DNA of 63,001 bases, the filler included, from Collodictyon triciliatum (taxonomy: Eukaryota), in assembly GCA_043381765.1 (NCBI GenBank). It is 5 parts of 5 records of this genome, joined end to end, with 100 filler letters (N's around TTAATTAATTAA, not from the genome) between each part and the next. Parts side by side here need not be neighbours in the genome. Positions count along the whole stretch, not along the records: positions 1 to 15,174 come from JBHJMP010001707.1; 4 more parts are not named here. One strand, given 5' to 3'. This document shows positions 1 to 61,030 of the stretch, one piece after another (the stretch's first letter is position 1; every line of letters begins with the position of its first letter). The notes beneath the pieces were generated by a model. That model saw only the letters and a program-made list of their open reading frames with translations, was not told where the DNA came from and ran no database searches. Position numbers and translations under genes: made by a program.

Positions 1-755
1 TCCAGTCTATATACCTCGCCTGCCATTCACAGCCACCGGCTGAATCGATGTTAGCCAGGATAGCACTGTGGTCGGACAGCGCAGAATAGACTGTTTTAAG
101 TTTCTTGAACCATGCATGCAAGTCCCTTGAGCAGAAGAAGCGATCGATTCTGCTCCACGTGAAGCCGCTTTTTGTATGTCTTCTACACGTTGCTCCTAGA
201 GAGTGAGGATTTAGCGTCTTCCAAGGGTCTTGCAGCTTGTATTTCATGTCCAGTCGACAAAAGGTTTGTAATTGCGTGTCGAAGACCCAGACCACTCGGT
301 GCTGGCATCAATAAGAGCGTTGAAGTCTCCACAGATGATGATACATTTCGCAGAATCCATCTCCTTAGAGATAAGCTCATACTCGTGTATTCTATTATTT
401 GAACCTGCTGTTTGGAGCAACGTGTATGTCGTCATTATACGAGTGTCAGCTCCATCGATGTGGGTATCGAGACTTATGCAGCGGCCAAGAATAATCTCTC
501 TGAAGCGAAGATTGAGTTTGGCTATCCATTTCTTGCATAAAAACGCTACACCTGCATGTCTCTGCTGGTTATCGTCACAGGATCACATTTGTGGACCTTT
601 CCGTATTTCATTGTTGGTTAGATTATCAGGGCTGAGCCATGTTTCTTGGAGGCAGATGATATCTGTAATAGAGAAAAGAGCAGTGTTTAGGGACTCTTAT
701 CTTTTTTGGGGGTCTTTAATCCCCTAACTTTCCACGACAGAACGTTAAAACGCAT
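1..755 (-). pseudogene. LINE ORF2 apurinic endonuclease domain, disrupted
   Basis: APE motifs SWxVRGL, CLQET, GDFN, SRID and SDH, with in-frame stops and frameshifts. Confidence 0.85.
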
Positions 756-2776
756 GAAAAGTCTATTGGCTTCTGGAGGCTGTAGCCTCCGGTAGTTGGC
801 CCTCTCCGCTGGAGCTGGGTTGCTCAGAGTGGGATGGTTTACTCGATTTGTCCTTCATTTGGCCGGTGTTATAATTGCTCGCGGCTCGGCCAGGATTTGT
901 CGGATGGTCTTGGGCTTTGGGCTGCACCCCCTTTGTAGCTGTTGTGTTGGGAGACGCACTCTGTTGGTCATCAGTAACCCTCGGTTCCAATTTTTCCCCC
1001 TCATCCACGCGGTGGGCAGGGCTAACCATGTTTCCACTTTCATTTTGATTTGCTTTCTGGCTCGCTATATTCGGTGTTTTACTTGACTGATTCATTCTCT
1101 TTTCATCGGGCGAGGCTTTATCTTCGACGGTTTCGATATTTTTTGGTGCGCCAGTGATTGCAGGATGAATAACCGGTGTTTTATATTCATCTACGTTTCT
1201 TTTTCTTGCATTGGAAGCCGTTTCTCGCTGGGAGTCACAAGAGTTTCGACAGCAGGTCTGTTCCCACAAACAGTACTTAAGTAGTAATTCGTTGTTCCCG
1301 AAGCTTCAAGGAGCTCACTTTCTTCTTCAGCAGAACCTTCTATGATGACGACAGGTTGGATGGACTGTTGTTCTTCCAATCCCGAGTCTGGGACGTCGCT
1401 TCTTATGGATTGCACAGTACTTGCTGAAGGAGGAGTCTCTTGGGTGGTCCCAGGAGCCATGACCTCTAAGGTGGCTGGTGGGTGTGGTTTGCTGGGTGCC
1501 ACTATGCTATTTCCTGATTGTGTTACCGATTTGGCTTAGGCTTCCCTTTCCTCGGCGTCCTCTCCATGATTTAAAGGAGAGCTTGGTGAGATATCATCGG
1601 CTTGAGGAGGTTGGAAATCTTGGAGGTTATCGATGTTTCCTCCACTTTGAAGCCATTCCACGATTGATACTGCTTCCTCTGTGTTCATTGGTGAACTTGA
1701 TGCACTTTCGAGCAAATCGCTTGGTGATTCGTCCATCATTTCGATATCCGTTTCTTGATTTTGAAGCGGTTCCTGGATATTTGTCTTGATTGAGACTTCG
1801 AGCACTTTATCCGCGGATGTCTTGTCGCGATTTCTCCCTCTGGCATTAGAGGACGACGCGTGTTGCCTTTGGCCTTGTTTGTGGGCTCTGGGCTTGTTTT
1901 GCACAGACTATTCCTGCACGGTTAGCCTGTCTTTAGCGCTGAAGTCGGCTACTTTTGTGTGGAAGCCTGAGAAGCGAGTGGCGGTGTTTTGTTTGTTGGT
2001 GGCCACTTGATTTTTGGTGCTTGGCTTGGCAGTAGCTGTTTTTTTTTGTGGTTTGTGGTTTGACCTTGTGTGTCATACCCTTCTTTGTTGGGGAGGGTTG
2101 ATGGGATGTCAGACTCTTTGAGTGCACATATCTTAACGCGACAGTGTCTATCATGAATAACAATAAAGGTAGGTATTTTCCCCATTTTTTCCTGTTCTTT
2201 GTCATAAGTAACGAGTGCATCATTCATGCATATTCCTCCAGGCTTTGTCCAGTTGACTTTGATTGGGGTGAAGTACTCATTACAGGCTTTGAAAATATCA
2301 GTCTAGTCAACTTCAGCGGTATGTTAGACAGGTGCGCAACCTTGGTGACAGTTTTTGCTGGCATGGGGGTAAATTGGTGATTGAGGAGCTGTAAAGACTC
2401 CTCTTTAATGAAGGCAGCCGCGTTTTCTTTTCATGGGACGGCGATTCTGGGTCCCGAGGGCAGGGCTGTCCACCATAAGTGCCACGTCCTTCTCGTAGCA
2501 CTTTCGGGCTTCCATAACCTCCCGCAGTTGCTTACACATATTACTGCGGTTTGCGAAAGAGAGAACCGGCCATTGCTTGCCCCGAAGGCGGACAAAGCAG
2601 TGTTCGTCTTTGAACAGTTCGTTCTCAATCGGACTTGTTATTTAGGGGCACGTCAGCCACAAAAGATCGACCGAGAGGTTCCGTTTCCCGATGCAAGTTC
2701 GACCCTGCACGAAGCTGGCTGTCATCATCAAAATCATGGTCTCGTATTTATTTTGCACTTTTTGACGGAACCATAG
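1..2776 (-). mobile_element. Decayed non-LTR retrotransposon (LINE, L1/Tx1-like): broken ORF1 followed by ORF2 AP-endonuclease running off the window start
   Basis: ORF2 starts at ATG 755 (MRFNVLSWKVRGL) and carries APE motifs DIICLQET, IIICGDFNA, WSRIDRFF and LSDH. ORF1 fragments (763-2776) have an RRM-like part and a long S/Q/T-rich linker. Multiple stops and frameshifts. The 5' end is approximate. Confidence 0.85.
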
Positions 2777-3092
2777 GAATTTTTTTTTGCTGTCAATAAA
2801 TGCAGTCATTCAAAAATGAAAATATTAATAATGTAATTCATACTTCACAGGATAACTTAATTGGCACGATTTCTTAAAATGATTCAATATACATATATAA
2901 CTGTCACATCGATGCTTTCATGTCAACAGTATAATAATTCAATTGTATTTGCATAGACTTTACATATTCTTTCAAAAGTGGCCATCAAAGAGTCTTAATG
3001 GTATTTTATTTCAGGAGTAAATGAATATAAAATTGTTGAAAAATGAGAGAGAATCGGCGAGCAAATGAGATAGCTTGAAAAGAAAAAAAATA

Positions 3093-6000
3093 TCAAAACT
3101 CTTCGACTGCTTTTGGATGAGTAATATCATGCATTTCCACATCCTTGCGAAGTCTCATGCCCATAATTACTCTGATAATAAAATTTGAAACCCAATTATA
3201 AACAATCAAGTCCCAAATAAAGTTGAGCATGGACAGAAATTGTGTGAGTAACAGTCTCACAACAACAGGGCCAGCTTTTGAAAGGAAAACGATACATATT
3301 CCTCCATTCAAAATAACAACCAAAAGCACCAACACAACTTCAGTTTTTTGGTTAATACTGCTGTATTTGAAAAGCAGACTCAGCATCAAGGTGAAATAGA
3401 GAATCATGAGGGATTGCAATTGTGACTTTTTCAGCACATTGGATATGAATGGCCTGAAATAAATGGTCGAAGCAATCATCAGAAACAGCAGCCACAAACC
3501 AAAGTATATTTGCAGCGAAGCAGGAAAGAACGTGCTTATCATTACAATGACCAACTTTTGCATCATCAAGACGACCTCCCAGTATTGGCACTTTTCAGTA
3601 TATCCATCAATCAAAAATCTGAAAAGTGCGTATGTTTTCGAAGTAGGATTGCTCAACGCTGTTCTTTTTCGAATGATTCTGACCAAAAAAAAGAGCGGCC
3701 CGCCGATACAATAGGCAAAAAGGAAAACAAAAGAAATATTCCTCCACAATTTGTATGTTTCGTCACCACATAAAATAGACATATCAGCTATCAAATATCT
3801 TATATCTCCGAGTTTTTCACATGGAAATATCTGTGAAATGCTCGATGTGATTGAAGGATGGACAAAAAACAGCATCACCAGCATCGAGTACATGATTTCT
3901 TCCCGAAAACGATTAAGTGTAAAGCTGCTTCTTGAAATCTCATTTTTGTAAAGTCTCTTAAACTCTTTCATCAAAACGAATATTAACATTATTACTGTCA
4001 AAATTACTGGACTCAACATTGTAAACAATAATTTCTCATACAATGACATTTCTATTTGGCATTCCATCGGGTAGCTGTCTATTGAAAGCGAAAATGAGAA
4101 TAGGGCTGGGATTTTCATTGCTGAAATTATGATTGAGCTCCATTTTACATCAAAGTTCGCCAAATATGACAAGACTTGGAAATGTGTGGAGAGGGATTTC
4201 AGGATTTGAATATTTCCTGTTCTCGTCTGTCTTGATTGTTCTATCATAAAGAAAACAAAGGCAAATGGAATAAAAAAGCTCAGGAAAATCAAGAATATGT
4301 TCACTCCTTTCGGTGGGCATTTAGTGCAGTAATACCCAGTTTTTCCGTATCCATTTTCACAAATACTGCATAATGGCCCAGTGTATCCATCAGCACAAGT
4401 TTTATTTCCTCCGTTACATGCATTTTCATTCAAACATTTGTAAGCGACATACTGTCCATTTGAGATTTGAGTCTGCCAATATCCTGGTGCAACAGTTGGT
4501 TGACTGGTTCCTTCACATTCAAATCCCTTGGGGCATGTTTTGCATTGTTTTAATCCATAATCATCGCTGTATGTATCTGAAGGACATTCGTAGCAGTTTC
4601 CTTGCTTTTCATACCATCCTGGTTTGCATTCACAAGTGGAGTTTGTCAACTCGAATCCTGTCTTGCATTCACAATCGGTTGAATAAAGAGAGCCTTTGTT
4701 TTTTGTTGTAAATTTATCACCACAAGATAGGCAGAAATTCGTGCCGTTTGTTGGTTTGTATGAACCGAGTCTGCACGGAACACACTCACTTCCATCCTCA
4801 AAGTTTCCTGGAGGACATGTGCAAATGCCATCATATGACACATAAGTATCTAAGCACTTGCAATCATCTATTGATTTGGAGCCTTCTTTAATTGTGGTTG
4901 AGCGTGTGGGGCATAAACTGCATGATGAGCTTCTTTCTGAGCTGTAGCTTCCATTTGGACATTCAATGCATGATGATTGATCGAATGAGCCAGGTTTGTT
5001 GTTAAATGTACCAGCTGGACATGATGTGCATGATGCTTGACCATCTCTATCATTCCAAGTACCTTGTGGACATTCAATGCATGGTTTGTTTCCATATGAG
5101 CCGGAGTTTGAGTTGAATGTGCCTTTTGGACAAGCATAGCATGATTGAGAATCTTTTGTGATGTCTTCTTTTTGATAATATCCTGATGAGCATAAACTAC
5201 ATGATGAGCCTCCTGCTGAGCTGTAGCTTCCATTTGGACATGAAATACATGATGATACATTGAATGAGCCAGTTTTGTTGTTGAATGTACCAGCTGGGCA
5301 CGATGTACATGACGCTTGACCATTTTTATTATTCCAAGTGCCTTGTGGACATTCAATACATGATTTGTTTCCATATAAGCCGGAGTTTGAGTTGAATGTG
5401 CCTTTTGGGCAAGCGTAGCATGATTCTGAGTCTTTTATAGTTCCTTCTTTTTGGTAGTATCCTGATAAACATAAGCTGCATGATGCGCTTCCACTTAAGC
5501 TGTAGCTTCCATTTGGACATGAAATACATGATGATACATTGAATGAACCAGTTTTATTGTTGAATGTACCAGCTGGGCACGATGTGCATGATGCTTGACC
5601 ATCTCTATCATTCCAAGTACCTTGTGGACATTCAATACATGATTTGTCGCCATATGAGCCGGAGTTTGAGTTGAATGTGCCTTTTGGACAAGCGTAGCAT
5701 GATTTTGAGTCTTTTATGATATCTTCTTTTTGATAGAATCCTGACAAGCATAAGCTGCATGATGCGCTTCTTTCTGAGCTATAGCTTCCCTTTGGACATT
5801 TAATGCATGAAAATTGATTGAATGAGCCAGTTTTATTGTTGAATGTGCCAGCTGGACATGATGTGCATGATGCTTGACCATCCCTGTCATTCCATGTACC
5901 TTGTGGGCATTCAATACATGATTTGTCGCCATATGAGCCGGAGTTTGAGTTGAATGTGCCTTTCGGACAAGTATAGCATGATTTGGAGTCTTTTGTGATG

Positions 6001-9000
6001 TCTTCTTTTTGATAGAATCCTGATGAGCATAAGCTGCATGATGCGCTTCTTTCAGAGCTGTAGCTTCCGTTTGGACATGAAATGCATGATGATTGATTGA
6101 ATGAACTAGTTTTATTGTTGAATGTACCAGCTGGGCATGATGTGCATGATGCTTGACTATCTTTATCATTCCAAGTGCCTTGTGGACATTCAATACATGA
6201 TTTGCTTCCAAATGAGCCGGAGTTTGAGTTGAATGTGCCTTTTGGACAAGCATAGCATGATTGAGAATCTTTTGTGATGTCTTCTTTTTGATAGAATCCT
6301 GATAAACATAAGCTGCATGATGCGCTTCCAACTGAGCTGTAGCTTCCATTTGGACATGAAATACATGATGATACATTGAATGAGCCAGTTTTGTTGTTGA
6401 ATGTACCAGCTGGACATGATGTGCATGATGCTTGCCCATCCTTATCATTCCAAGTACCTTGTGGACATCGAATACATGATTTGTCGCCATATGAGCCGGA
6501 GTTTGAGTTGAATGTGCCTTTTGGACAAGCGTAGCATGATTGAGAATCTTTTGTGATGTCTTCTTTTTGATAGAATCCTGATGAGCATAAGCTGCATGAT
6601 GCGCTTCCAACTGAGCTGTAGCTCCCATTTGGACATGAAATACATGATGATTGATTATATGAACCAGTTTTATTGTTATATGAACCCGCTGTACACGATG
6701 TACATGATGCTTGACCATCTCTCTCGTTCCAAGTGCCTTGTGGACATTCAATACACGATTTGTTTCCATATGAGCCAGAGTTTGAGTTGAATGTGCCTTT
6801 TGGACAAGCACAGCATGATTGAGTCTTTTGTGATTCCTTCTTTTTGATAGAATCCTGATGAGCAAGAGCTGCATGATGCGCCTCTTTCTGAGCTGTAGCT
6901 TCCGTTTGAACATGACATGCATGATGATTCATTGAATGAGCCAGTTTTATCGTTGAATGTACCAGCTGGACACGATGTACACGATGCTTGACCGTTTTTA
7001 TCATTCCAAGTACCTTGTGGACATTCAATACATGATTTGTTGCCATATGAGCCGGAGTTTGAGTTGAATGTGCCTTTTGGACAATCATAGCATGATTTGG
7101 AGTCTTTTATGATATCTTCTTTTTGATAGAATCCTGATGAGCATAAGCTGCACGATGAGCTTCTTTCTGAGCTGTAGCTTCCATCTGGACATGTAATGCA
7201 TGATAATTGATTGAATGAGCCAGTTTTGTTGTTGAATGTACCAGCTGTACATGATGTGCATGATGCTTGACCATCCTTGTCATTCCAAGTACCTTGTGGA
7301 CATTCAATGCATGATGAGTTTCCATATGAGCCGGAATTAGAGTTGAATGTGCCTTTTAGACAGGCATAACATGATTGCGAGTCTTTTATAATTCCTTCAT
7401 TTTGATAGAATCCTGATAAGCATAAGCTGCATGATGCGCTTCTTTCTGAGCTGTAGCTTCCATTTGGACATGAAATACATGAAGATTGATTGAATGAGCC
7501 AGTTCTATCGTTGAACGTACCAGCTGGACACGATGTACATGATGCTTGACCATCTCTATCATTCCAAGTACCTTGTGGACATTCAATACATGATTTGCTT
7601 CCAAATGAGCCGGAGTTTGAGTTGAATGTGCCTTTTGGACAAGCATAACATGAGTTTGAGTCTTTTATAATTCCTTCATTTTGATAGAATCCTGATAAGC
7701 ATAAGCTGCATGATGCGCTTCTTTCTGAGCTGTACCTTCCATCTGGACATGATAGACATGACGATTGCTTGAATGAGCCAGTTTTATTGTTGAATGTACC
7801 AGCTGGGCATGATGTGCATGATGCTTGACCATCCTTATCATTCCAAGTACCTTGTGGACATTCAATACATGATTTGTTTCCATACAAACCGGAGTTTGAG
7901 TTGAATGTGCCTTTTGGACAAGCGTAGCATGATTGTGAGTCTTTTATAATTCCCTCTTTTTGATAGTATCCTGATAAGCATAAGCTGCATGATGAGCTTC
8001 TTTCTGAGCTGTAGCTTCCGTTTGGACATGAAATACATGAAGATTGATTGAATGAGCCAGTTTTATTGTTGAATGTACCAGCTGGACATGATGTGCAATC
8101 GTCTTTATAGCTATTTCCAAAAGTGCCTTGTGGACAATTAATACATGAGAAGTTGCTTGTTGAACCAAACTTTGGATTGTAAGTACCATCTTTACAATTG
8201 ATGCACAAGTGTTGACCGATATATGGATTGTATGAGCCAGGCTGACAAAGTTCACATGTTGATTCGCCTGTTTTTGATGAAAATCTTCCTTTTGGACATG
8301 ACTGACAGCTGCTTAAGCTGGCCGATGCGACATTGGGGTTGTAGGAACCAGCTGGACATTTTTCACAGGTGATTGATTTTGTTTTGTCTGAGTAAGTTCC
8401 AGTGGGGCATGGATTACAAAATTGCTTTCCTTTCTCATTAATGAAAAATCCAGCAGGACAGTCAAAACAGCTCGACTTTCCATCAACGCTATTGTATGTT
8501 CCTGGTTCGCATAAAAGACATGATAAATTTCCAGCACCTCGAATATTTGGATTGAATGTTCCTGCAGGGCATGGAGTGCACGACTTATCTCCTGAATTAC
8601 TGTAAAAACCAGTGGTGCAATTATTACATGAAATTTGCCCCTTTATATTATTAAATGTTCCAGCCTCGCATTTCTTGCAAATTGATTGGCCCAAAAAGTT
8701 ATTATATGTTCCTTCTTCGCATGGAAGACAATCTTTAAGGCTTGTGGAACCAGTTAATGGATTATACGTTCCAGTTGGACATAATAAACAAGATGTGAGC
8801 TCATTTCCATTATTGTAAGAGCCAGTTGGACATTTTTCGCATGAATTTGATTGTTGGTTGAAAAAGTATCCCCCTTGGCATGGACTCCATAGTTTGATAA
8901 ATCTATCAGTGCTTGCTGAAATTATTTTAGAGTCAGGAGTGGCAAAAACACTATTTACTGAATCTGTGTGACTCAGAAGTGTTCTGATTTCTCTTCCATC

Positions 9001-11669
9001 AGATATTGTCCATATTTTGACTGATTTATCACTGCTTCCAGAATACAATTTTGTTCCATCAGTTGATATTGAAATGCCATTTACTGAGCTTGTGTGTCCG
9101 TTTATTGTTCTGATTAAAATTCCATCTGACATATTCCAAATTTTGATTGTGTTATCGCTGCTTCCGGAGATAATTTTTGTCTCATCTGGAGAGGTAATAA
9201 CACATCTAACAGTATTTCCGTGACCGGTTATGGTTCCGAGTAGTGCTCCATCTAAGAGATTCCATAATTTTATTGAAAAATCAGCACTGCCAGATATTAT
9301 TTTGCTGTTAACAGGAGTGATGAAAACAGAATTTACTCCTTTTGTATGTCCTGACAGTGTTTGAGTTAAAATTCCATCTGAAACTCTCCAAATATTTATA
9401 TTCATATCGTCACTTCCTGATGCTATAAGATAACTATCTGACGTTATTGCTACGCTCCGAACAGCTGCAATATGGCCACTGAATGTTTTTAATAGTAAAC
9501 CATCTGAGAAATTCCACATTTTAACGGAATTATCGCTGCTTCCTGAGACTATTTTTGTTCCATCAGCCGAAACAACAACACTATTCACAGCACTTGCATG
9601 TGCATTTATTGAAAGCGCTTGAGAACCGTCAGCATAATTCCAGATTCTTACTGTATTGTCACTAGCTCCTGACACGATTTTTGTTTTATCTGGGCTCAAA
9701 GCAACACTATTGACTGAACTTGTGTGGCCTGAAACTGTCAAAATCAAGCTGAAATCAGGAAAGTTCCACATTTTGATTGTTGTATCATCGCTTCCTGACA
9801 AAAATTTCGTGCTACCAGAAACAATTGATACCCCATTTATTGCTGCAACATGCTCATTCATTATATTTATTGTGACTCCGTTTAAAAAATTCCATATTCT
9901 TATTGTATTATCACTGCTTCCAGAGAAAATCTTTGAGCCATCAGGAGATATCGAAACAGAGTTAACTATTCCAGTGTGCCCATTGAGTGTGCGAATCAAG
10001 CTTCCATCTAAAATGCTGGTCACAATAATTGTTTTGTCGCTGCCTCCAGAAACAATTTTCATTCCATCTGGCGTTATAGCAACAGAATTTACAGAATTAG
10101 TGTGAATTTTTATTTCTTGGACTAATGTTCCATCAAAAATATTCCAAACTTTGATTGTTTTGTCTGAACTTCCGGACACAATTTTTGAATTATCAGGAGT
10201 TAAAACAACACTTGTTACTATTTCAGTGTGCCCAGTTAACGTACGAGTTACAGATCCATCAGAAATGCTTGTAATTTTGATTGTTTTATCGCTGCTACCG
10301 GATACAATACTAGTTCCGTCTGCGGTTATAGCAACCGAGTTAACTGCTTCAGTGTGGATTTCAAATGATTGAGTAAAAGCGTCATCATTCACGTTCCAGA
10401 CTCTAATTGTTTTATCAGCACTTCCTGAAATAATTTTTAAACTGTCTGGTGATAATATTAATGTGTTCACTATGTCTGAATGACCAATCAAGGAGCGAAT
10501 TAATGCGCCATCGGATAATTTCCAAATTCTGATAACACTGTCTGAATGCCCTGATATGGATATTGATTTCGACTGAGACGAAGAAATACTTGTAATTCTA
10601 GAGCCTCTAGTGTATTTAAGAGCTCCGTCAGGGAAATTCCAAAGTTTAATTGTTCGGTCTCCACTTCCTGATAAAATTTTTGAACTATCAGGAGAAACAG
10701 AAACACTTATTACACCAGCAAGGTGACCGGTCAATGTGCGAATCAAAGCTCCATTAGAAAAATTCCATATTTTTATAGTACTATCGTCACTTCCAGAGAT
10801 AATTATTGAGCTGTTAAGAGAAATAGCTACTGTGCACACAGCATTACTATGCCCAATCAATGTGCGAATCAAAGTACCATCAGAAATATTCCAAATTTTG
10901 ATTGTTTTGTCATGACTCCCAGACGCAATTTTTGAGCCATCAGGAGTGACAGCAACACTCCGAACCCAACTAGTATGACCGTTCAATGTGCGAATCAAAG
11001 CTCCATCAGAAAGGTTCCAGATTTTGATTTCGTTATCGAAACTTCCAGAAACAATTTTTGAGCCATTAGGAGTAACAGCAACACTCCAAACACCATTAGT
11101 ATGACCAGTCAATGTGCGAATCAAAGCTCCATCAGAAAGGTTCCAGATTTTGATTGTATTATCATAACTTCCAGAAACAATTTTTGAGCCATTAGGAGTA
11201 ACAGCAACACTCCAAACCCTATCAGTATGACCAGTCAATGTGCGAATCAAAGCTCCATCAGAAAGATCCCAAATTTTGATTGTATTATCATAACTTCCAG
11301 AAACAATTTTTGAGCCATTAGGAGTAACAGCAACACTTAAAACATAACTAGTATGACCAGTCAATGTGCGAATCAAAGCTCCATTAGAAAGATTCCAGAT
11401 TTTGATTGTTCTATCATAGCTTCCAGCTCCAGAAATAATTTTTGAGCCATCAGGAGTGACAGCAACACTCCAAACATCGTCAGTATGACCAGTCAATGTA
11501 CGAATCAAATTATCTTGCCCTTCAACAAGACACAATCGGCAGTGGAGCATCAATCCTAAAAATATATCAATTAAAATTCTATGTATTCTGAAACCAATAA
11601 AATTAAACAATTTCTTAATTACTCACCCATCAGCAACAGAGCTGTAAAAGTCTTTGATTTCAATCTCAT
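3093..11669 (-). CDS. Giant predicted cell-surface protein: signal peptide + 21 WD40 repeats + Cys-rich GCC2/GCC3 (ephrin-receptor-like) repeats + ~9-TM C-terminal domain; one 2-bp frameshift near 6820
   Basis: Exon 1 (11669-11627) and a GT-AG intron (11626-11556) give MRLKSKTFTALLLMGLMLHCRLCLVEG-QD. ORF 6748-11610 has the GH...WN repeats followed by CxxCPxGTY/F repeats. ORF 3093-7088 continues the same repeats and then hydrophobic helices with YWEVV and RPF motifs. Confidence 0.9.
4915..8100 (-). repeat. Coding tandem array of ~11.5 x 279-bp (93-aa) Cys-rich units
   Basis: The anchor gagttgaatgtgcctt recurs every 279 bp (e.g. 6505, 6784, 7340), except for a 277-bp spacing between 6784 and 7061. 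Confidence 0.95.
10873..11508 (-). repeat. Five near-identical ~126-bp WD40-coding repeats
   Basis: The unit ttgattcgcacattgactggtcatact...gatggagct is repeated; differences cluster in a few codons. Confidence 0.95.
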
Positions 11670-14600
11670 TCTAAACTAATACGATGAGTGTTTAAACATT
11701 TATACAAAATTTTATGAAGTGGTGTAATACCCAATCAAGACATTTGTTTAAACATCTAATATTGAACCATTCTACTCAATTATTATTGATTGATTCAAAA
11801 ATACATCGCATTAGACCATCTAGACAACTTCAATAATACTCATGTAATACAAATAAATCTCAAAATAAAAACACTCTTATTCACACCTTGATAGACATGA
11901 CTATTTTATTTGATGGTATAGTGACTTATTCAATCAATTCATTTATATTAAAAATGCAAAATATTCATCATCTCAAATTAAATTGATTTCAACTCAAAAA
12001 TTAATTGATAAAATTCATTAGACTTCGGTTATATTTTTAGCAAGGTCATTTTTGTATCAATAATAGGTATATTTTGATTTGATACTTATAGTAAAATCAC
12101 TAATCAATTATTAGATAAATCATTCCTCCAAAACAAATCAATCAATTTACGACATACGGAAAACAATATTAAATAGGGTACTCATGCAAAGTAGCCTCAT
12201 TATGAATAGGAAATGAGAATAAATCAAAAAAATCAAGTTTAAGTTTAAATGATAGGATAATACATGTTTCAGTTTGAGAAGAATAGGTTTGGTTTGTCTG
12301 AGTGATAAATCAATAAATTGTGGTGACCAAAATAGCTGACGATTTCACAGAAGACTTTTCAATCAATTTTATGGACTTTAAAATCAAAATATATCACACC
12401 TATAATTAAAAATATAGAATTAATTATTATTATTCAAGCAATTTGCACGATTTTAAAAGAATTCAATATGATAAAACAGTTATATGTTATGTGTATCAGG
12501 AATTAAAGTGAATATCACACTTATGTATAAAACATGTCATCAAGGAAAACACGTGTCAATCATTTGGTTAAATTTTTCACATATTTCGTATGTAATATTG
12601 ATAAAGTAAGGAAAAAATTATTTAAATTATTGTTAATCATGTATTCTTTAAAACAGCGTCTAAATTCACAAAACATCCAATATTTTAATTAATTCATCAA
12701 AAATATATAAAACATTAAGTCCTTGTTTTTTCAGAATTACAAAATTGGATGAGCAGATTATATGATGTAATGCTTAAAAGTAAGAAGTGGTTAATGACAT
12801 ATAATTTTAATAATGTTTAATTGTTATATTGATTATTTATGAAAGATGTATGGAAATAACATTAAAATTGAAATGATATACGATAATTGATTTAAGTGCA
12901 TGTATTAATAGATTATTCATCAAAATATTGTAAAATATAATCTCATAAAATATTGTTTACCAGAACCAGTGGTATCCTTTGAAAAATTGCTTTATTGGTT
13001 GAACATTTATTTTAATATTCCTCTAAATAAAAAATTATAAATACCAATATATTCCAATAAAATTTAATCAAGCTATTATCAATTATTCATTATCATAATG
13101 TGCATATTTATCTAGATATACTAATTCAATTTTTTTTGCTTCCGTATAATATTTATACATATAATTAATCAGAAAATCATAACTTTATAATAGTCATATT
13201 ATTCGATAACTTATATTGTTCAATGATAAAATAAATACTGTCTGCTTGACTATATCGAGTGAACATCATATAGGAGCAAACAAAAAATATTTCCTTTAGA
13301 ACAAGGGTTTCGATAGTATCTGATAGAAATTAAAATAATGATTAAATATAACTTAGCAAATTGTCTTTCAGTTAACTATATTATTGATTATATATAAAAT
13401 ATTTTAACCCTTGAAGAATAACCATCTATGTACAAAATAGGGCTCAAGCGACGAACTACATCCTAATATTCGGTAAAATTTCATTACTAACTGATTGCAG
13501 TTTTAAAAGATGTTGTGTGAGTATTGGATATCATCTCAAATACATTTCATGATTCACAACCGGTATTATTATGCATTTATTTATCTGATTCATGTCAATT
13601 GTTATCTCATTTTCTATCATAAGTCCCAAATATAGTGATTTTTGATTGACCTCTCTTTTAATGACATATTTGTCACAGTCACCATATTAATATGATTCAT
13701 AGAGCTAAAACCAGCTATACTAATCAAAACCAAATCACTCTGATAAAAAATTGTTTTATTATTATGACTATTAATAGTGATATGTTATATGTAAATACTA
13801 TATTTCATTGAGAATTTGTAGATTATGTGCTATAAAGTTTCTTTGGAGCTCTGAATAGAATAAGTCTATTACACTAAGGTTAGTACTAAAATTTTGATAC
13901 AAAATATATATTAATGTATAAGAAAGGCAACAAAGGTCTGAATATTAATAAATTTACAAGCACAATCGTTTCAAAGGTAATTTATAATTGATAATTTAGT
14001 CATTGAGGTATTTTACGTGTGCATCAATACAGAGATAATGTTCCTAGTTGAAAATTGATGAATAATACATAAAGAAATTAAATTGTAATCGTATTTAATA
14101 CTTGTACTCTGCCATATTTTGACCAAACATAATAAACTGAACACTATAAGACTTAATAATATGAAACAATCATAGAAGTCATACTATATGTGGTGGATTA
14201 AATAGATAAATCATCATATAAACCAACATAAATATACGAAAATATTATGTATGCATAAAAAGAATTTTTGAATATACGTGAATGATGATAATCGAAAAAA
14301 ATAAAAGGGCGTGAACCGTCTACCATATCCTTGGTTAGTCGGGACAATGAAAAAGCGAATATCGATATGCGTCTTATTACCTCTGATTGATTTGGAATTG
14401 GGAGGGGAGGGGTGGGTTTGTTGGATTTGATAAATCGACATCTAAATAACCAAGAGAGAAAATTGAACTAATTTAGATGATTTAACAACGATTAATTATC
14501 AAATAGGTTTATTTATTGAGCGGTAAACCTACAAATCATTTCACTTGGAGAAACGAACAAGGTCTAGTAAGGTGAGGGGTATGGGCGTGAAGCTGTGGAC

Positions 14601-15174
14601 AAATGATTGCAGTTCGGTCAAGGGGGAGGGGTGGTGTATCATTCAGCGGCAAACTGGTTTTTAGCGGGGATGTGGTATGTGTTTTTCGATTTGGATATTA
14701 GAATGGTTCATATGTTGATTAGTTGGTTTTTAAATTCACATAAGATGGAAAAGTGTATTATTAATTTAATTAAGACGTCATATTAAAATACGATACCAAG
14801 AATCTGCAGATAACTAAGCTTCTCTAGTAGATACGTAATTTAAAGATTTTTTTGTAGATTTAGTATTCACAAGACGATACATAAAACGATTATTGAAAAA
14901 TAAACGACGTAGCATGACGATTCTGTAGGCAGACCATTCATCTTGATTAAACTTTATTAGATAATTAATATATAGCTGATATTATTGTATTTATTGTAAG
15001 TATTACAATATTGATTCCATGTATTTTATGTTAGGATTAAATCTATCAACTGAATAATGAAATAACTAGCAAAGCCAGACTCCGATGATAATTCTTAATT
15101 TTATAGATTTTTGTTCTATCATTAGTAATAGTTTTACAAGTGAAATATTTTTTAATTATAAAATATTCGAATTT

Positions 15175-15274
15175 NNNNNNNNNNNNNNNNNNNNNNNNNN
15201 NNNNNNNNNNNNNNNNNNTTAATTAATTAANNNNNNNNNNNNNNNNNNNNNNNNNNNNNNNNNNNNNNNNNNNN
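15175..15274. other. Artificial contig linker (N-TTAATTAATTAA-N)
   Basis: 100-nt N run with a central six-frame stop spacer. Confidence 0.98.
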
Positions 15275-15404: not shown

Positions 15405-15474
<70 letters not shown>

Positions 15475-15515
15475 AAAAAAAACAAAAAAAACAAAAAAAC
15501 AAAAAAACAAAAAAA
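15277..15515 (+). repeat. ~131-bp direct repeat copy 1 followed by an A-rich tail
   Basis: Near-identical to 16683-16813. Both copies are followed by poly(A) and then gagg. Confidence 0.9.
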
Positions 15516-17015: not shown

Positions 17016-19660
17016 TTATTCATCGGGGGAAACGTCCAGTTGATAAGGAAAACCGAATGAATAACTATAGATTTCTTGGAGTAAGTTGGAAAACATGACG
17101 CAAATTGATCGAAAACCACTGTAAGGCCCGATTCCGAAAGGCTGAGAGGATAACAATATCGGGCTCTGCGGTTCTATGCAAGATGCTTTCCTCCACTCTG
17201 CAGCTTTTTGAATCAACTTCGATACCCATCCGTTTTCGTAGCACTCAGGTAGTTTGAAAATGCTTGAGTATTTGTGCGTCTCCCCAGTTTTGTCTCCATT
17301 CTCATCCAATATGTCTTGAATAATTTTGGTTTTTTGTTCCAAAATATCCAGCACATCTCTGGAGCCTCCTTGAACCAACTGTTTCAGCTTTTCGAAATCG
17401 TCGGCTTTACCAAACCAAATATAAGCTAGCTGTGCGTTTTTCGCAACTACGACCGCTTTATCATAAAGTCGGCCATATTCTCCGCTGGGAAACGCGTAAA
17501 CTTTCCTTTATCACAATAAGTAGCAAAGTTTTCATCAAATGAAACAGCTCCGATGGAAAGTAAGAGTCTTTTATCGAACCTAGTCAGCCCACTGATGTTT
17601 TTCAGCAGAATTCTACCACACTCTAATTTCCTTGATCTAGTTGCACATACTTTTTTTCACCCAAGGCACTATGATCTGCAGCCTTCGCCATGCTATTGTC
17701 CTCCTCAGAAAATACATTTAATCTATCGACAGTATTTTCAACTAAAGAACATCCAAACCTTGCGTATATTTTTTTTTTAAGTTATCATGAGGAATTTTCG
17801 TAAGAAGCATATTGATCAAGTTCCATATGCGTATACTTTTATCTGCACTCCCAGATTCCAGCTAATCATCTCCTTTCGGTCCTTTGATACTGGATAAAAT
17901 CATCACACGGCCTGTGTGTCCTTCCAATTTCTTTATTTGACGTCCTGTGTCTAGGTTCCACATACGAATGGTCTTGTCGTAGCTACCTGCAACTAACTAG
18001 ATTCCTCCATTCAGTCCAATCAAGTAACACAAAGTCTTGAAACCTAGTGTGCGCCCTTTAAGCACTTTGACATGATTACCAGAGGCCAAATCCCATATTC
18101 TTATAGAGCTATCATTGGCCTCAGACACTGGGAAGTCGCCGCCTGAATCTGCTATGATTTGAAAGCAGTTTACCATGTCTGAGTGCCCTTTTAGCTTTCG
18201 GATCTGATTTCCTGTGATTATATCCCATATTCGAATGGTAGAATCGCCATTCCCAGAAGCAAGCCAGCTTTCTTTATTTGGTCACTTTATACAGCATACA
18301 CTTTGAACTTCTTGATTATGCCCCTTTAGCTCTCTAATTTAAAATCCAGAAAATGTATCCCAGTTATGTATACATGCAATATAACCCCCAGAGGCCAACC
18401 ATTTTCTCCGTGCGGTCCTGGAACACTACAAACAGTTAATATTTTGGTCGTGTGCCCTTAAAGTTTTTTGGTTGGTTTCCAGAAACTACTCTCGAACACT
18501 TAATAATCTGTCATCGCTGGCAGACACCAACTAACTCTTATCTTTCGGTCCTTGTATGACACAAAAGGTGTACACATCATTTGGGTGTCCATGTAATTGC
18601 TTAATTTGTTTTCCAGTTTCTATATCCCAAATGCAAATAACTTAATCACGACCTCCTGACACCAGCCATTCATCCCCATATGTTACAGGAATGTTAGAGG
18701 GTATTAGAATCTTTAGTTTGTCCTTCAAAAATATGATTAGAATCCCCGTATGCCAGACTTTTCGTGAGGGTATTGTTCAGGATACAATCGCCCAGGTTTG
18801 GAACGGATAAAGCGACACCATCCAAAACGGCTCCTTCCAAATTTGACCTGTTCATAACAGGATTACGAAGGTTTGCATATGAAATTTTACTAATGATGAA
18901 TTCATCTTTTCCCTTTTTTTTTTCTTTTCTTTTACCCCTGTTTTTTCTTTTTTCTATCTCCCACACATCCCCACCTACTTTGGAACTACTTTCCTGACGT
19001 TTGAATGAAAGATTGTTGAGACGGGCTCAACAGCTAAGATTTTTAGAATAAAAAAACGATAAATCCATCTTGCTGAATGAAATATTCGTGAAATTGAGCG
19101 ACGATATTACATCAGATGCACTCTTTGATTTTCTTTCATCATCTCTCGACATGTGAAGAATTTGGAACAGTGACAAAATAATCTCTTTGCGATTCCATTC
19201 TTCCTCTAGTTTTGCTTCCTCCACATTTTCAAAAATGAAAATCTTAACCTTCGTAAATTCAGCAGGTTCTTTTTTAATTCCTATCTCGCTGGAATGATTG
19301 GATAAGCATTCACATGAAATAAATGCCATTGGGTGATTCCAACCATGTTTCTTGGCAAATGTATCTCATTTCGGACCAAAATTCTATTGCCACACCATTT
19401 TTCCAGTGACCGCATATATTTTCTTAACATTCCTGCATGCTACTCAGCTATTCCAATCTTCAAAACAAGAATGTTCTCCATGTATGAAAACGGCCATTTT
19501 GTAAAGCTGAGCAGCATTATCAAACTCTTTCTTACTTTTTATAAACCCTAGCTATTCTTGTGCACTGCTGGCCATCTTTTATTGAGATCATAATTTTTGT
19601 TTCTTTTCTAATATTCGAGGCTTTTTGAAAATAATCGACTTCCTGTTCTAATATGTTATG
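17016..19660 (-). pseudogene. Decayed TPR-like / pentapeptide-repeat / WD40 gene with an unknown C-terminal domain
   Basis: TPR-like YFQKASNIRK and EFDNAAQLYKMAV; ASDVISSLNFTNISFSKMDLS then ANLRN..SNLEGAVLDG pentapeptides; ~7 WD40 repeats (e.g. GHSDMVNC..SIRIWD, GSYDKTIRMWN). Many stops and frameshifts; ends approximate. Confidence 0.8.
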
Positions 19661-26799: not shown

Positions 26800-29030
26800 A
26801 GTGCAAATGCCGCTGATACTTTCTTGACCTAATCTCACCCGATTTATCATTTTCAATTACATGTTAAGCAGCCTATCTCATGAATTATTGCAGAGGAGTC
26901 AATCCGCACAGTGATTTAATGGTTAGATTTATGCCAGAAGCACTTCTCTGTCTGAGTAAAATTATGGTCCCGCACGAAAGGGAGGCAGTTCATATATCTG
27001 TTGGTAAATAATTCAGGAAAGAAGGATGCTACCTAATATCCGTTTCCAGACGGTATTTTTCAATATTTTGAGTTAATATTCACCTTGTTGAATGCAAAAT
27101 CTAGTGATTCAAGCTTCAAGAGACTATTAATGGCTTCAGGAATATATTTTAACTATATTGTAAAGATAAGATTAAAAAATATGTGCGATTAAAAAAAGAG
27201 TGAAGAATTTAGTAAATATTTAATAAACGGCATCATAGAAAAAACTAATACCGCATTATGCGAAAGGTCTAAATGAACTATTGAGGTCATGGCAGTAAGG
27301 CAGTCAGGAAAGACATTGAACTGATGAGCGGTAAGATGTTTTTAACTTAACTATCACATAACAGAGGGATTGTGTGATTTTTACCTTGTTGTTCTTCAGG
27401 CATAAATATGTTATATTCGTTAAATGCACAAAGTTTATCTGCAACGCGGCTAGATTCATGCCATAAAAGCTGAGTGCTTGATATCGGATTTGTTTAATAC
27501 AGGGGCTCCAACTTTGGTTGGTCATTCCTGCGTTCTATAATATGTAATATGTTTTTATAAATTGGATTTGCATCGTAGTTGAAGCAGAAACATTTGACGG
27601 AATTATAGGGAACATACTGAATCTAGGTATTGCAGTCGCGAGATGCTATCGGGTGCTTTAAAATCCAGAGAGTGGATTGTCTCCCAACATGGCAGATTGG
27701 AAAATCCTCGATGTACCCTCCTAACCGAGGTACTGCCATCTCCGCTTCTCATATGAAGTTTGGTGAGGCGATGCAATGCCACCAGTTGTTCGGGAAGCTC
27801 TTCAATCTAGAAATTTTTATAGCCACCTTAAATCATAACCATGGTGTTAAAACAAACAAACAAACAAACAAACATACATACAAACAAACAAACAAACAAA
27901 CAAACAAACAAACAAACAAACAAACAAACAAACAAACAAACAAACAAACAAACAAACAAACAAACAAACAAACAAATAAATAAATAAATAAATAAATAAA
28001 TAAACAAATTAATAAATAAATAAAGGAATGAAGAAAAATGAAATAGATACATAAATAGAAAGCATGTTTATGATTCAGAAGATTAATTTTACCAGAGTGT
28101 TAAAAATCGAAAGCTCTCTCAAGCTAGTCAATCCTGATATCTCCGAAGGTAAAAATGAGATTTTGGTGTTTGAAATATCGAGATTTTTCAGGCCAATTAG
28201 TCTTGATACAGACGATGGCACACAAAGAAGTGGATTTAGGTTTATATGCAAGCTGGTGAGACTCGTTAGGCTCCATATCCCTTGAGGTAAACAAGAAATC
28301 TGATTAAGGCCAATATTGAAATCATTTAGCCCTGACAAAGTCGAAATCTCATCTGGGAACGACGATAAGCGGTTGTGATTTACCCGTAATATGGATAAGC
28401 GTGTCAAAAAAGACAGATTGTGTGCTATGAATGAAACATGGTTGCTAGATACATCCAGCTCAATCAACTTGTGAAGGCACCAAACACCAGGAGGCAGAAA
28501 AGAGAGCTGGTTGCATGACAGATTCAGCATCGAGAGATTGACTAGATTGGACACATCTTCTGAAAGTTGCATTATCATGTTGTTTCTCAAGTCTAAGCTG
28601 ACCAACTGACCCAGGTCATATATACCAGGTGGTATTTTCGACAAACACCTGTTAAATGACAGGCTCAAGGATGTGCAGTTTTCAATCCTATGAAACCATC
28701 CTCTGGGCTGGTAGTCTATGCCAAAGTCCTCCAGCCTATTTATGGAGGTGTTCCACCACGGCATTGGAGAGCTCGTGGATGGCAGGAGGTATGTCGATCC
28801 AGACCCCACCGACCTTTTTGGGAGTACAGCTTAAAAAAATAAATGAAAAACATGAAAGAAGGCCTCTGGCAACAAGCGATAATTGTCGGGTAAATGGAGC
28901 AGTTGTTCTAGAGCGAGCTCCAGCAGACGAACCCGTTCTGGGCCTTCTGTCTCTTGTGTTTTATATGATTCGGTAAGGAGAATGGCCTCGTTCATATCTC
29001 CACGGAGTTCATTTGCACACAGAAGCAATC
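26800..29030 (-). pseudogene. Multi-exon LRR gene, probably partly decayed
   Basis: ORF 28075-28809 has ~8 LRRs (LxxLxLxxNxLxxLPxxI). A spliced exon at ~27807-27620 reads IEELPEQLVALHRL...VRRVHRGFSNLPCW. Further degenerate LRRs lie at 27000-27530. An LRR-like segment (IPPAIHELSN) is out of frame near 28790. The core exons could still be functional. Confidence 0.75.
27849..28024. repeat. (AAAC)n/(AAAT)n intronic microsatellite
   Basis: Tetranucleotide runs. Confidence 0.9.
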
Positions 29031-30435: not shown

Positions 30436-30535
30436 NNNNNNNNNNNNNNNNNNNNNNNNNNNNNNNNNNNNNNNNNNNNTTAATTAATTAANNNNNNNNN
30501 NNNNNNNNNNNNNNNNNNNNNNNNNNNNNNNNNNN
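30436..30535. other. Artificial contig linker
   Basis: N run with TTAATTAATTAA. Confidence 0.98.
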
Positions 30536-31091: not shown

Positions 31092-32905
31092 TTAACGCGG
31101 TCGATTTTGTCCATAAAGCGGACTTGGAACACCCCTAGAAAGAGACGAATCTGATGTGGCCTTCTCTTGGCCATCGCCAAGGAGAGTACCTGATGAGTGT
31201 GACCTTTGTTGAGCACGATCAAGTCTTGATACCGGCGTATGAAGATCGTTGCGTTCACGTATAAATGTGTCCTGTAGGGGTGTCATATTTTTAATTATTA
31301 TTTTTTTTTTAAAAAAAAAGAATAAATAAGAGAATCTCCCAAATTATTTTGTAAATATACTTCGCAAGAGATAAAAAAAAAGATCTTATTTCTTTCTCTC
31401 CTTCATGCATTTTTTTTTTATAAAAAGCATAGTGACGTTTGATATACATATTTTGTATTTACATATTCATGAAGCGGGGGGTTATATCCCAATGATGTGT
31501 GAGAAAAGGAACGACTCTGAGAGGCTCTTTGAGGATGGGCTGCTTTTTGATGGGGCGTGCGCATGGAAGGTATTCTTTCAAGTCCCGAAAAGCTTTTCTC
31601 TCCATCTGTGGGTGTGGTGCTGCCTGCTCTGAAATACCTGCCCTGCGTTTCGTATGTATTTGGGTCTCCGTGTTCATATCTCGGTGACTTTGGGGGGTCT
31701 TGCTTCCCTTGTGGGAGGTACTGGTAAAGGCCAGCTTTTGAATCTTGGCGGTAATGCGGGGCAGACAGGGTTGTATCTGACATGCCAGGATACGAAGGCT
31801 GTGGACTCACCACCTGCCGGCCAGAATAAGAATATTCTAGCTGTTGCTGTCTATGAGGTTGCTGTTGTGGGGGAGTGACTGCAGGTTGTTCTGTCTCGCT
31901 CGGGGCTTGGTGATGTGCTTGGTACGGCGGCTTTGGAATATTTGCCGGCTCCACCGTGATGGAATTTCGCTTGCTCGAGTCGCTTCGAGTCGAGGTAAAG
32001 ACTGACGTAGGGTGGGCACGCAGGTGGGACTCAGTCATACGCTGCTCGCGTCGGCTAAACTTTGGTGGGTTATGTGCAACCATCTTTGTCGGAGATTTAA
32101 TCAACAGGATGGACTCTTCTACATGCAGCGCAGTGGGCTCTTCGACATTTCCTTTGGTGTCACTTGCTTGATGCGTTTGCTTTGGGCCATACAGCGGAGG
32201 GTGGTCGATATAGTGCGGTTGCTTGACCATATGACTTTTCGCATCTGGGTCGGGAAATTTCACGTCGCTATGTGAATTGATAGTGGAGATAGAGCGCCGT
32301 TGTTCAGACGCAGTTGATGTGTACTGAGGGTTGTGTCGCTCGAGTTCGGGAGTGTTGCCGCTGGGCAAGGCCAGGTTTGACATTTTTTCTGTTATTTGGA
32401 CCTGAATCTGATCGGTTTCAGTGGATAAAGACGGGAGTTGGAGTTTACGCGGGGTAGTTGGATGTGGGTCGTACACACTGTCCGAGCTGGATTCTGCAGA
32501 TGGACCAAGATTTTCACTACCCATCAAATGCAGTGTTGGATTGTGTGGTATTTCGAGCTCGTCTGATAAAGATGCCAGACAAGACGTTGTGTTGGGCATC
32601 GACTTGGAGTAAACACTCGAATTTGGTAGGGATGCCGACTGGTGGAGTGAAGGGGATGATATCAGCATTGCATCGAGAGGCATGGATGATTCGGATGTAT
32701 GAGGGGTCAATTCTATTCCTCTCACTGATGAGTTGTCTGTCTGATGGCGAATTTGGGGAGATAACGTTGGCACTGAATTTTGATCTTTACCATGTTCTAT
32801 GTAGGTTTGACCAAGATGTGGCGCTAGCTGATCATTAGCTGATGACTGAGTGTTTGGAAAAATGACACTCACAGGCAGAGGTATGTGAGGAGGAGGCTTT
32901 CCGCG

Positions 32906-32997
<92 letters not shown>

Positions 32998-36489: not shown

Positions 36490-43150
<6,661 letters not shown>

Positions 43151-45696: not shown

Positions 45697-45796
45697 NNNN
45701 NNNNNNNNNNNNNNNNNNNNNNNNNNNNNNNNNNNNNNNNTTAATTAATTAANNNNNNNNNNNNNNNNNNNNNNNNNNNNNNNNNNNNNNNNNNNN
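45697..45796. other. Artificial contig linker
   Basis: N run with TTAATTAATTAA. Confidence 0.98.
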
Positions 45797-60930: not shown

Positions 60931-61030
60931 NNNNNNNNNNNNNNNNNNNNNNNNNNNNNNNNNNNNNNNNNNNNTTAATTAATTAANNNNNNNNNNNNNN
61001 NNNNNNNNNNNNNNNNNNNNNNNNNNNNNN
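60931..61030. other. Artificial contig linker
   Basis: N run with TTAATTAATTAA. Confidence 0.98.

Follow-up and report, generated by a model that had tools for sequence, protein, structure and literature searches.

Near-identical WD40 repeats with clustered hypervariable codons in a predicted giant membrane receptor gene of the protist Collodictyon triciliatum

Among described systems, the closest to the gene considered here are the HNWD/NWD genes of Podospora anserina (het-e, het-d and het-r), which encode NLR proteins whose WD40 repeats show high internal conservation (PMC1805685, PMC4986451). In HET-E and HET-D, codons 7/9 and 25/27 were found to be positively selected (Paoletti et al. 2007, PMC1805685); the selected codons flank conserved positions of the d-a loop and of the b-c turn, at the top of the propeller. 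From 29 complexes, Wu et al. 2012 (PMC3419727) concluded that the residues R1-2, R1 and D-1, i.e., the 16th, 18th and 34th residues of a blade, are generally needed for top-face binding. Two thresholds for high internal conservation are available: more than 85% identity across a minimum of 100 amino acids (aa) (Dyrka 2014, PMC4986451) and internal identity above 0.7 (Hu 2017, PMC5587647). Here and below, statements on published systems refer to excerpts of the cited papers. We analysed a stretch of 63,001 nucleotides from the freshwater protist Collodictyon triciliatum (GenBank assembly GCA_043381765.1; hereafter, the window), which consists of five joined parts. The first part (positions 1-15,174, JBHJMP010001707.1) carries, on its minus strand, a gene for a predicted giant membrane receptor in which several WD40 units are nearly identical in DNA, while the changes between them cluster in a few codons, with amino-acid change in excess of silent change. 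It is from fungal self/non-self receptors that such a pattern is best known.

We give an even chance to the explanation that this region is a ligand-binding head, in which recently duplicated blades have had their ligand-contact residues driven apart by selection on a constant scaffold. The protein would be a giant membrane receptor of the secretory pathway, with a signal peptide, three N-terminal WD40 propellers, a long cysteine-rich stalk and a multi-pass module. A 126-bp unit would recently have been duplicated in tandem to give blades 1-5, or else unequal exchange or gene conversion would maintain their likeness. Selection would have driven or kept apart codons 15, 16 and 18 (d-a loop and start of strand a) and codons 34, 36 and 37 (b-c turn), the residues of which would jointly form the top, ligand-binding face, with the scaffold under purifying selection. 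The result would be a fast-evolving binding surface on a constant frame, recognising an external partner, e.g., prey, a parasite, a mate or kin. Binding as the function, the direction of selection and signalling through the membrane module are what we infer from the observations below.

Repeat units and their hypervariable codons

The minus-strand open reading frame (ORF) 6748..11610 contains 21 WD40 units in a 42-residue register. The Pfam scan matched PF00400 (WD40) above the gathering threshold (E=1.5e-199, 20 matched stretches), and Tandem Repeats Finder reported a 126-bp period at 10724-11509 (6.2 copies, 84% matches). The units are as follows:

10888..11523, minus strand: young WD40 units 1-5 (blades 1-5 of propeller 1), from alignment
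~11392-11523, minus strand: unit 1, with a two-codon insertion
11266-11391, minus strand: unit 2, from codon alignment
11140-11265, minus strand: unit 3, from codon alignment
11014-11139, minus strand: unit 4, from codon alignment
10888-11013, minus strand: unit 5, from codon alignment
10636..10887, minus strand: units 6-7, of intermediate age, completing propeller 1; 71-77% DNA identity to units 2-5
8884..10635, minus strand: units 8-21, old and diverged (propellers 2 and 3), with bland top-face positions

DNA identity is 84-94% among units 2-5, 75-81% between unit 1 and units 2-5, and 46-73% (mean 57.5%) among the older units. At the protein level, units 2-4 are 85.7% identical to units 3-5 over 126 aa, and units 1-4 are 82.1% identical to units 2-5 over 168 aa; the first threshold given above (>85% over at least 100 aa) is barely reached, and by the sub-array of units 2-5 only. 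Within the DHSW tetrad (H13, S31, D35 and W41 in this register), all aligned units share H13, S31 and D35, and 17 of 19 have W41.

A first-pass annotation of the window had described repeats 1-5 as near-identical units of ~126 bp and repeats 6-21 as old and diverged. Apart from small corrections, these observations hold. The former description fits units 2-5, and unit 1 is, with its lower identity and its insertion, less similar than it suggests; the latter fits units 8-21, units 6 and 7 being intermediate. The residues it quoted at the variable sites (DDVW/SYVL/DRVW/NGVW/SWVR and YDR/YDN/YDN/FDN/HDK) are correct, as is its count of 8 differing nucleotides between units 3 and 4, all within two patches (codons 15-16 and 34-37). 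Between units 2 and 3 it counted 10 differences; there are 11, and, as it stated, 7 of them are in the three codons (15, 16 and 18) that come right after GHT. The patches were located as follows:

11470..11481, minus strand: unit 1, patch a (codons 15-18, DDVW), from translation
11407..11418, minus strand: unit 1, patch b (YDRT), from translation
11338..11349, minus strand: unit 2, patch a (SYVL), from codon alignment
11281..11292, minus strand: unit 2, patch b (YDNT), from codon alignment
11212..11223, minus strand: unit 3, patch a (DRVW), from codon alignment
11155..11166, minus strand: unit 3, patch b (YDNT), from codon alignment
11086..11097, minus strand: unit 4, patch a (NGVW), from codon alignment
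11029..11040, minus strand: unit 4, patch b (FDNE), from codon alignment
10960..10971, minus strand: unit 5, patch a (SWVR), from codon alignment
10903..10914, minus strand: unit 5, patch b (HDKT), from codon alignment

Parsimony on the tree (((3,4),2),5) requires 29 base changes among units 2-5. Four codons, 16, 18, 34 and 36 (12 of 126 nucleotides), were fixed beforehand from the HET-E work, and 13 of the 29 changes fall in them (p=8e-7); the six hot codons, 15, 16, 18, 34, 36 and 37, take 17 of the 29 (p=4e-8). The most changeable codons in these units are 16, 18 and 34. The clustering of changes is far beyond chance.

The frequencies of non-synonymous and synonymous differences were compared using the Nei-Gojobori method. 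For the pairs 2-3, 2-4 and 3-4, the non-synonymous proportion in hot codons is 0.35-0.46, and the framework proportions are 0-0.074 (synonymous) and 0-0.025 (non-synonymous). For pairs that include unit 5, the hot-codon non-synonymous proportion is 0.35-0.56 vs. 0.19-0.26 for framework synonymous differences. When the minimum number of amino-acid changes in hot codons is compared to the 7 silent framework changes on the tree, the ratio (omega) is ~2.8-3.0 (p=0.024-0.03), and nucleotide-level counts on the same tree yield 3.6-4.2 (p=0.003-0.004). Among the units of this one locus, the earlier proposal that amino-acid change at these codons is elevated relative to silent change was borne out (omega ~2.8-4.2, p 0.003-0.03).

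Such a pattern could in principle result from neutral decay after duplication, in which the least-constrained surface positions drift fastest, with no adaptive meaning. Top-face loop residues are variable across WD40 proteins generally, the entropy in old units is highest at position 15 and is also high at positions 36 and 16, and the sample is small. As a control, sites were weighted by their entropy in 14 old units. Under this weighting, codons 16, 18 and 34 take 7 of 16 amino-acid changes, compared to an expected share of 9.1% (p=2.7e-4); the most variable old-unit positions include 1, 5, 8, 11, 14 and 21, and all of these except 11 are invariant in units 2-5, so that equally loose positions stayed unchanged where the hot codons did not. 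An internal control is provided by nine units of the stalk of the same protein, the silent divergence of which is similar to that of the WD40 units. The proportions of synonymous and non-synonymous differences (pS and pN) in these units are 0.273 and 0.073, respectively (ratio 0.27), variation is scattered over 37 of 93 columns, and 18% of the differing codons have at least two changed bases, vs. 41% in WD40 units 2-5; the stalk array is under ordinary purifying selection. The old-unit and stalk controls argue against simple relaxation. Neutral decay is further at odds with an amino-acid change in hot codons above the silent rate and with hot residues that are bulky aromatic or charged, rather than random, and we regard it as quite improbable. 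At the hot sites, young blades carry W, Y, R, F, H or L, whereas old blades have Asn at R1 in 9 of 14 cases and Ser at D-1 in 8 of 14. Bulky hot residues in young blades and bland ones in old blades suggest a chemically "sticky" surface concentrated on the outermost propeller.

Another explanation involves concerted evolution of the scaffold by gene conversion or unequal exchange, with purifying selection keeping the older, blade-specific contacts of an asymmetric binding site; omega above 1 would then come from erased silent divergence. The framework silent divergence is indeed very low in the pairs 2-3, 2-4 and 3-4, and the hot codons differ by 2-3 bases each, a combination that short-tract homogenisation around protected codons would yield; the HNWD literature itself invokes concerted evolution (PMC1805685, PMC4986451). 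However, this requires that the conversion tracts leave out the same 3-12 bases in all units. The young hot patches occur in 0 old units, so there is no sign of retained old blade identities, and inspection of the aligned units revealed no donor for these patches among old units. Also, identity drops stepwise from units 3/4 to 2, 5, 1 and 6/7, which looks like serial duplication. We consider concerted evolution of this kind unlikely.

The N-x-S/T sequons of the WD40 region (8884-11526) were also mapped. All 11 are at unit position 25 or 42 (44 in unit 1, which is site 42 displaced by the two-codon insertion of this unit), i.e., in the a-b and c-d loops of the bottom face, and 9 of the 11 are in units 1-6. 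A D/N change at position 25 turns the sequon on or off. N-glycosylation sequons are not enriched in this region (11 observed vs. 13.7 expected from shuffles).

Propeller fold, domain order and membrane module

Codons 16, 18 and 34 of the units correspond to R1-2, R1 and D-1. The hot codons flank V17 and D35, which are 18 codons apart, and this spacing equals that of the selected pairs in HET-E and HET-D; the first-pass annotation had equated the variable positions with these selected codons, and the flanked Val and Asp and their spacing agree with it. Residues 29-340 (10591-11526) were modelled using AlphaFold2 with a 25-row alignment. The model of propeller 1 has 28 strands in seven four-stranded blades, a predicted local distance difference test score (pLDDT) of 94.9 and a predicted template modelling score (pTM) of 0.91. 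It places the hot residues in the d-a loop, at the beginning of strand a (its second residue) and in the b-c turn. The best Foldseek matches are the 7-bladed WD40 propellers 7big, 2ymu, 5yzv and WDR5, with template modelling (TM) scores of 0.88-0.91; against 7-bladed WD40 structures, E is 5e-32 and TM is 0.90. The loops fit the expectation that the variable sites would be on one face of the propeller, as judged from secondary-structure position and the published WD40 topology.

Besides the WD40 units, the gene includes the following features:

11627..11669, minus strand: predicted exon 1, ATG plus 14 codons plus 1 nt (MRLKSKTFTALLLM+G), start of the putative signal peptide, read from the sequence
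11556..11626, minus strand: predicted intron, phase 1, 71 nt, GTGAGT...TTTTTAG, with canonical splice ends and the frame restored across the junction
4512..8883, minus strand: cysteine-rich stalk of Ephrin_rec_like (PF07699) repeats, from Pfam
4911-8097, minus strand: young tandem array within the stalk, 279 bp x 11.4, 88% matches
6819..6821, minus strand: frameshift at an A-rich spot, joining ORF 6748..11610 to ORF 3093..7088
3096..4511, minus strand: C-terminal module, a weak DUF7630 match followed by ~8-9 hydrophobic helices; stop codon at 3093-3095

From the N- to the C-terminus, the receptor consists of a putative signal peptide, 21 WD40 units (three propellers), ~30 Ephrin_rec_like repeats and a multi-pass membrane module. 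The two ORFs run without a stop codon for 1620 codons (6748..11610) and 1331 codons (3093..7088) and overlap by 341 nt; the frameshift is the sole interruption. Pfam detected 16 and 18 Ephrin_rec_like stretches in the two overlapping ORFs, along with weaker TNFR-type and NCD3G matches in the stalk. The frameshift site is 2 nt shorter than the corresponding site in 9 of 9 sister stalk units, and could be a sequencing error or a recent lesion or inactivation.

The ATG at 11669 gives MRLKSKTFTALLLM, and removal of the predicted intron joins it in frame to GLMLHCRLCLVEGQDN...; in the spliced translation, MRLKSKTFTALLLMGLMLHCRLCLVEGQDN..., a basic n-region precedes a hydrophobic core. The N-terminus is thus a signal-peptide-like segment of 27 residues, which, judged by eye, would be a classical signal peptide. 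No further long ORF was found in the upstream 1.5 kb. No hydrophobic segment separates the WD40 units from the cysteine-rich stalk; therefore, the propellers are expected on the stalk's side of the membrane (outside the cell or in the lumen). It is fair to suppose, from the sequence, that the WD40 head is membrane-distal and extracellular. This arrangement accords with the earlier placement of the variable propeller, given its N-terminal position, the putative signal peptide and the lack of a membrane segment before the stalk.

The DUF7630 (PF24633) match in the C-terminal module (24.0 bits, E=4.3e-5) is below the 27-bit cut-off, which was passed by 1 (P0247, 30 bits) of 7 relatives scanned. 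A phmmer search with the C-terminal 472 residues yielded 7510 relatives at E<=0.001; 2200 of these reach E<=1e-10, and 76 reach E<=1e-30. The module is mostly C-terminal in these proteins, which are 1000-6500 residues long; the best full-length relative is 34% identical, and the "longer" protein search with the membrane part returned 4 matches at <=28% identity. The Pfam scan of relatives covered 7 members and detected TIG in 6, Ephrin_rec_like and DUF7630 in 4 each, RCC1-type propellers in 3, LRR in 2, and FG-GAP and DOMON in 1 each. The presence of other binding heads (RCC1-type, FG-GAP and LRR) at the head position in these relatives was counted in favour of a binding head here. A hidden Markov model built from the receptor's own WD40 units found 0 WD40 units in 153 relatives. 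Given the shared layout and the lack of WD40 among these 153, the receptor belongs to a known, uncharacterised kind of modular giant receptor, for which a WD40 head is an unusual choice.

The AlphaFold2 model of the membrane module is confident (pLDDT 88.2). Foldseek found no match in the PDB at E<=0.001 (best 0.15), i.e., no convincing solved counterpart, and the best Z of the wide VIA search was 7.4, within helical-bundle noise. The gene also brings into view a very large family of giant receptors, as yet unnamed, in which the heads are interchangeable and the membrane module is confidently modelled and has no solved counterpart in the searches made. The only lead towards a TRP-like channel comes from Atlas feature clusters, 11-15% of whose members carry PF06011 (TRP). 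Pfam did not confirm it, with no match to PF06011 at E<=0.001, and the best Foldseek E and VIA Z are those given above. No paralogue of the stalk or the membrane module is present elsewhere in the window.

The receptor gene spans 8.5 kb with one predicted intron only, whereas other genes in the window are intron-split, as in an intron-rich eukaryote. Other window parts contain exon-sized ORFs of intron-split eukaryotic genes (28078-28830, 31421-33934, 37512-37877, 44763-45248 and 46939-47379), with matches to LRR, protein kinase, kinesin motor, ubiquitin-conjugating enzyme (E2) and metallo-beta-lactamase families. A second, unrelated WD40 gene fragment is located in another part (17780-18760, minus strand; 30-37% identity to the receptor propeller). 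The part that follows that of the receptor has a poly-A tract at 15408-15515 (108 bases, 90% A) in an AT-rich spacer. Pairs of 44-N runs occur at the part joints 15175-15274, 30436-30535, 45697-45796 and 60931-61030 (~every 15,261 bases), with a further group of N runs at 35764-35872; the regularity of the spacing is more suggestive of masking than of gaps in the assembly.

Public sequences and the scope of the interpretation

Residues 1-340, searched against proteins of 891-2835 aa, gave 7944 matches of the generic WD40 kind, and units 1-5, searched against proteins of 115-368 aa, gave 3018, none of them a near-identical fragment; the best match in each search was 59% identical. Three freshwater-metagenome runs from 2 studies, and no listed RNA run, carry parts of the window, with shares of 0.05-0.11. 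In the metagenome contigs, exact-pattern scans with the unit framework (N at hot codons) and with a 27-nt degenerate core gave 0 matches each, and no contig in the three runs spans units 2-5. Nine contig joints have sides of 20-40 nt and cannot be read as repeat-order variants. One raw-read run (X4) contained 0 reads matching the window. Depth peaks over conserved WD40 segments are not a measure of copy number. Separately, freshwater contigs ~90-92% identical to the window were found at 8740-8962, 9524-9805 and 11534-11766 (old units and the 5' end of the gene); these could come from alleles, paralogues or sister species.

These data bear on whether the pattern is an artefact of mis-assembled near-identical repeats, or the locus a dead gene whose pattern reflects past history only. 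The stalk frameshift at an A-rich spot would fit either case, as would the lack of a public contig across units 2-5 in an assembly whose read type is not stated. Conversely, both ORFs are open (1620 and 1331 codons) apart from the shift, and the DHSW residues are kept across units (W41 in 17 of 19). Independent metagenome contigs match the adjoining parts almost exactly, with 2 differences in 257 nt at 11391-11647 and 0-1 differences per contig at 9754-10215. The units differ by at least 8 nt and can therefore be distinguished by reads. We consider an artefact or a dead gene very improbable.

Several points weigh against a ligand-binding head diversified by selection. The protein searches and metagenome scans yielded no paralogue, allele or orthologue in which hot residues or the number of repeats had turned over. 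The young units number only four to five, all in a single locus, and the omega tests thus rest on ~20 events; furthermore, gene conversion could lower the framework silent divergence, which would inflate the ratio with no additional amino-acid change. Some hot residues are shared, namely, W18 by units 3 and 4, and Y34 by units 1-3. The assignment of the hot residues to one face comes from their secondary-structure position in a model, combined with published topology, and the signal peptide and the intron were both read by eye. The frame is broken once in the stalk (6819-6821), so the gene may be a recent pseudogene.

If the ligand-binding interpretation is extended beyond this locus, towards the variable-receptor system that the first-pass annotation had proposed, the gene would be one member of a system of protist surface receptors in which nearly identical blades, hypervariable at their top-face residues, are born, lost and exchanged, so that an extracellular WD40 propeller acquires new binding specificities. 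Such a system would be a membrane-anchored counterpart of the cytosolic fungal HNWD/NLR repertoire, acting in recognition of prey, parasites, mates or kin, and its membrane module would be an undescribed signalling fold. We regard this extension as rather unlikely.

Repeats that are homogenised, with hypervariable codons at the ligand face, are a mark of receptors that need new specificities again and again, and for WD40 this signature is documented in cytosolic fungal NLRs (PMC1805685, PMC4986451). Its occurrence on the head, predicted to be extracellular, of a giant multi-pass membrane protein in a free-living microbial eukaryote suggests independent evolution for cell-surface recognition. 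It would offer an entry point to how protists discriminate prey, parasites and kin, via one propeller and six codons per blade.

Comparison with known systems

Like the HNWD genes, the receptor gene has 42-codon WD40 units that are nearly identical in DNA, with variation in two codon pairs at the propeller top, one beside a conserved Val and the other beside a conserved Asp 18 codons away. Also as in HNWD, amino-acid change exceeds silent change, here in a small sample (p 0.003-0.03; clustering p<1e-6). Unlike HNWD, there is no N-terminal effector domain and a signal-peptide-like N-terminus is found instead. With only 28 residues of the ORF ahead of the WD40 units, which begin at residue 29 and run straight into the stalk, there is no room for a HET or NACHT domain, and no NACHT domain is among the 25 of 51 Pfam families listed. 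The gene is not an NLR. HNWD proteins are cytosolic, whereas an extracellular location, on a multi-pass membrane protein, is predicted for the head here; 4-5 young units adjoin 16 old ones, and the case is known from a single locus. Repeat-induced point mutation (RIP) does not apply to the receptor gene.

The locus also resembles the highly repetitive WD40 proteins of Hu et al. 2017 (PMC5587647), a class that spans prokaryotes, fungi and protists, in its recent repeat-level duplication, complete DHSW tetrads and 7-blade fold. Two members of this class, the Nostoc propeller 2ymu and PkwA 5yzv, rank with the closest structures to propeller 1 (TM 0.88-0.91). In the excerpted text, that work catalogues internal identity and stability, and deals neither with hotspot hypervariability nor with extracellular receptors; in the Collodictyon gene, only part of one propeller of three is highly repetitive.

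The literature search returned no protist paper on extracellular WD40 and, by title and abstract, no description of WD40 diversifying selection in protist surface receptors. The plant CRINKLY4 ectodomain has a similar order, an extracellular N-terminal WD40-type propeller followed by a TNFR-like cysteine-rich domain, and TNFR-type models likewise match the Collodictyon stalk. CRINKLY4 combines one propeller with a single-pass anchor and a cytoplasmic kinase, in contrast to three propellers, ~30 cysteine-rich repeats and a multi-pass module; there is no protein kinase family among the Pfam matches of the C-terminal ORF, and hypervariable homogenised blades are not reported for CRINKLY4 in the abstract. 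In overall layout, the receptor is like the giant proteins with DUF7630 and a multi-pass module (e.g., P0247, P0250 and P0258), which consist of a head, a stalk of TIG or Ephrin_rec_like repeats, DUF7630 and membrane helices. The difference is in the head, which is RCC1/RLD, FG-GAP, DOMON or LRR in the scanned relatives (n=7) and WD40 here.

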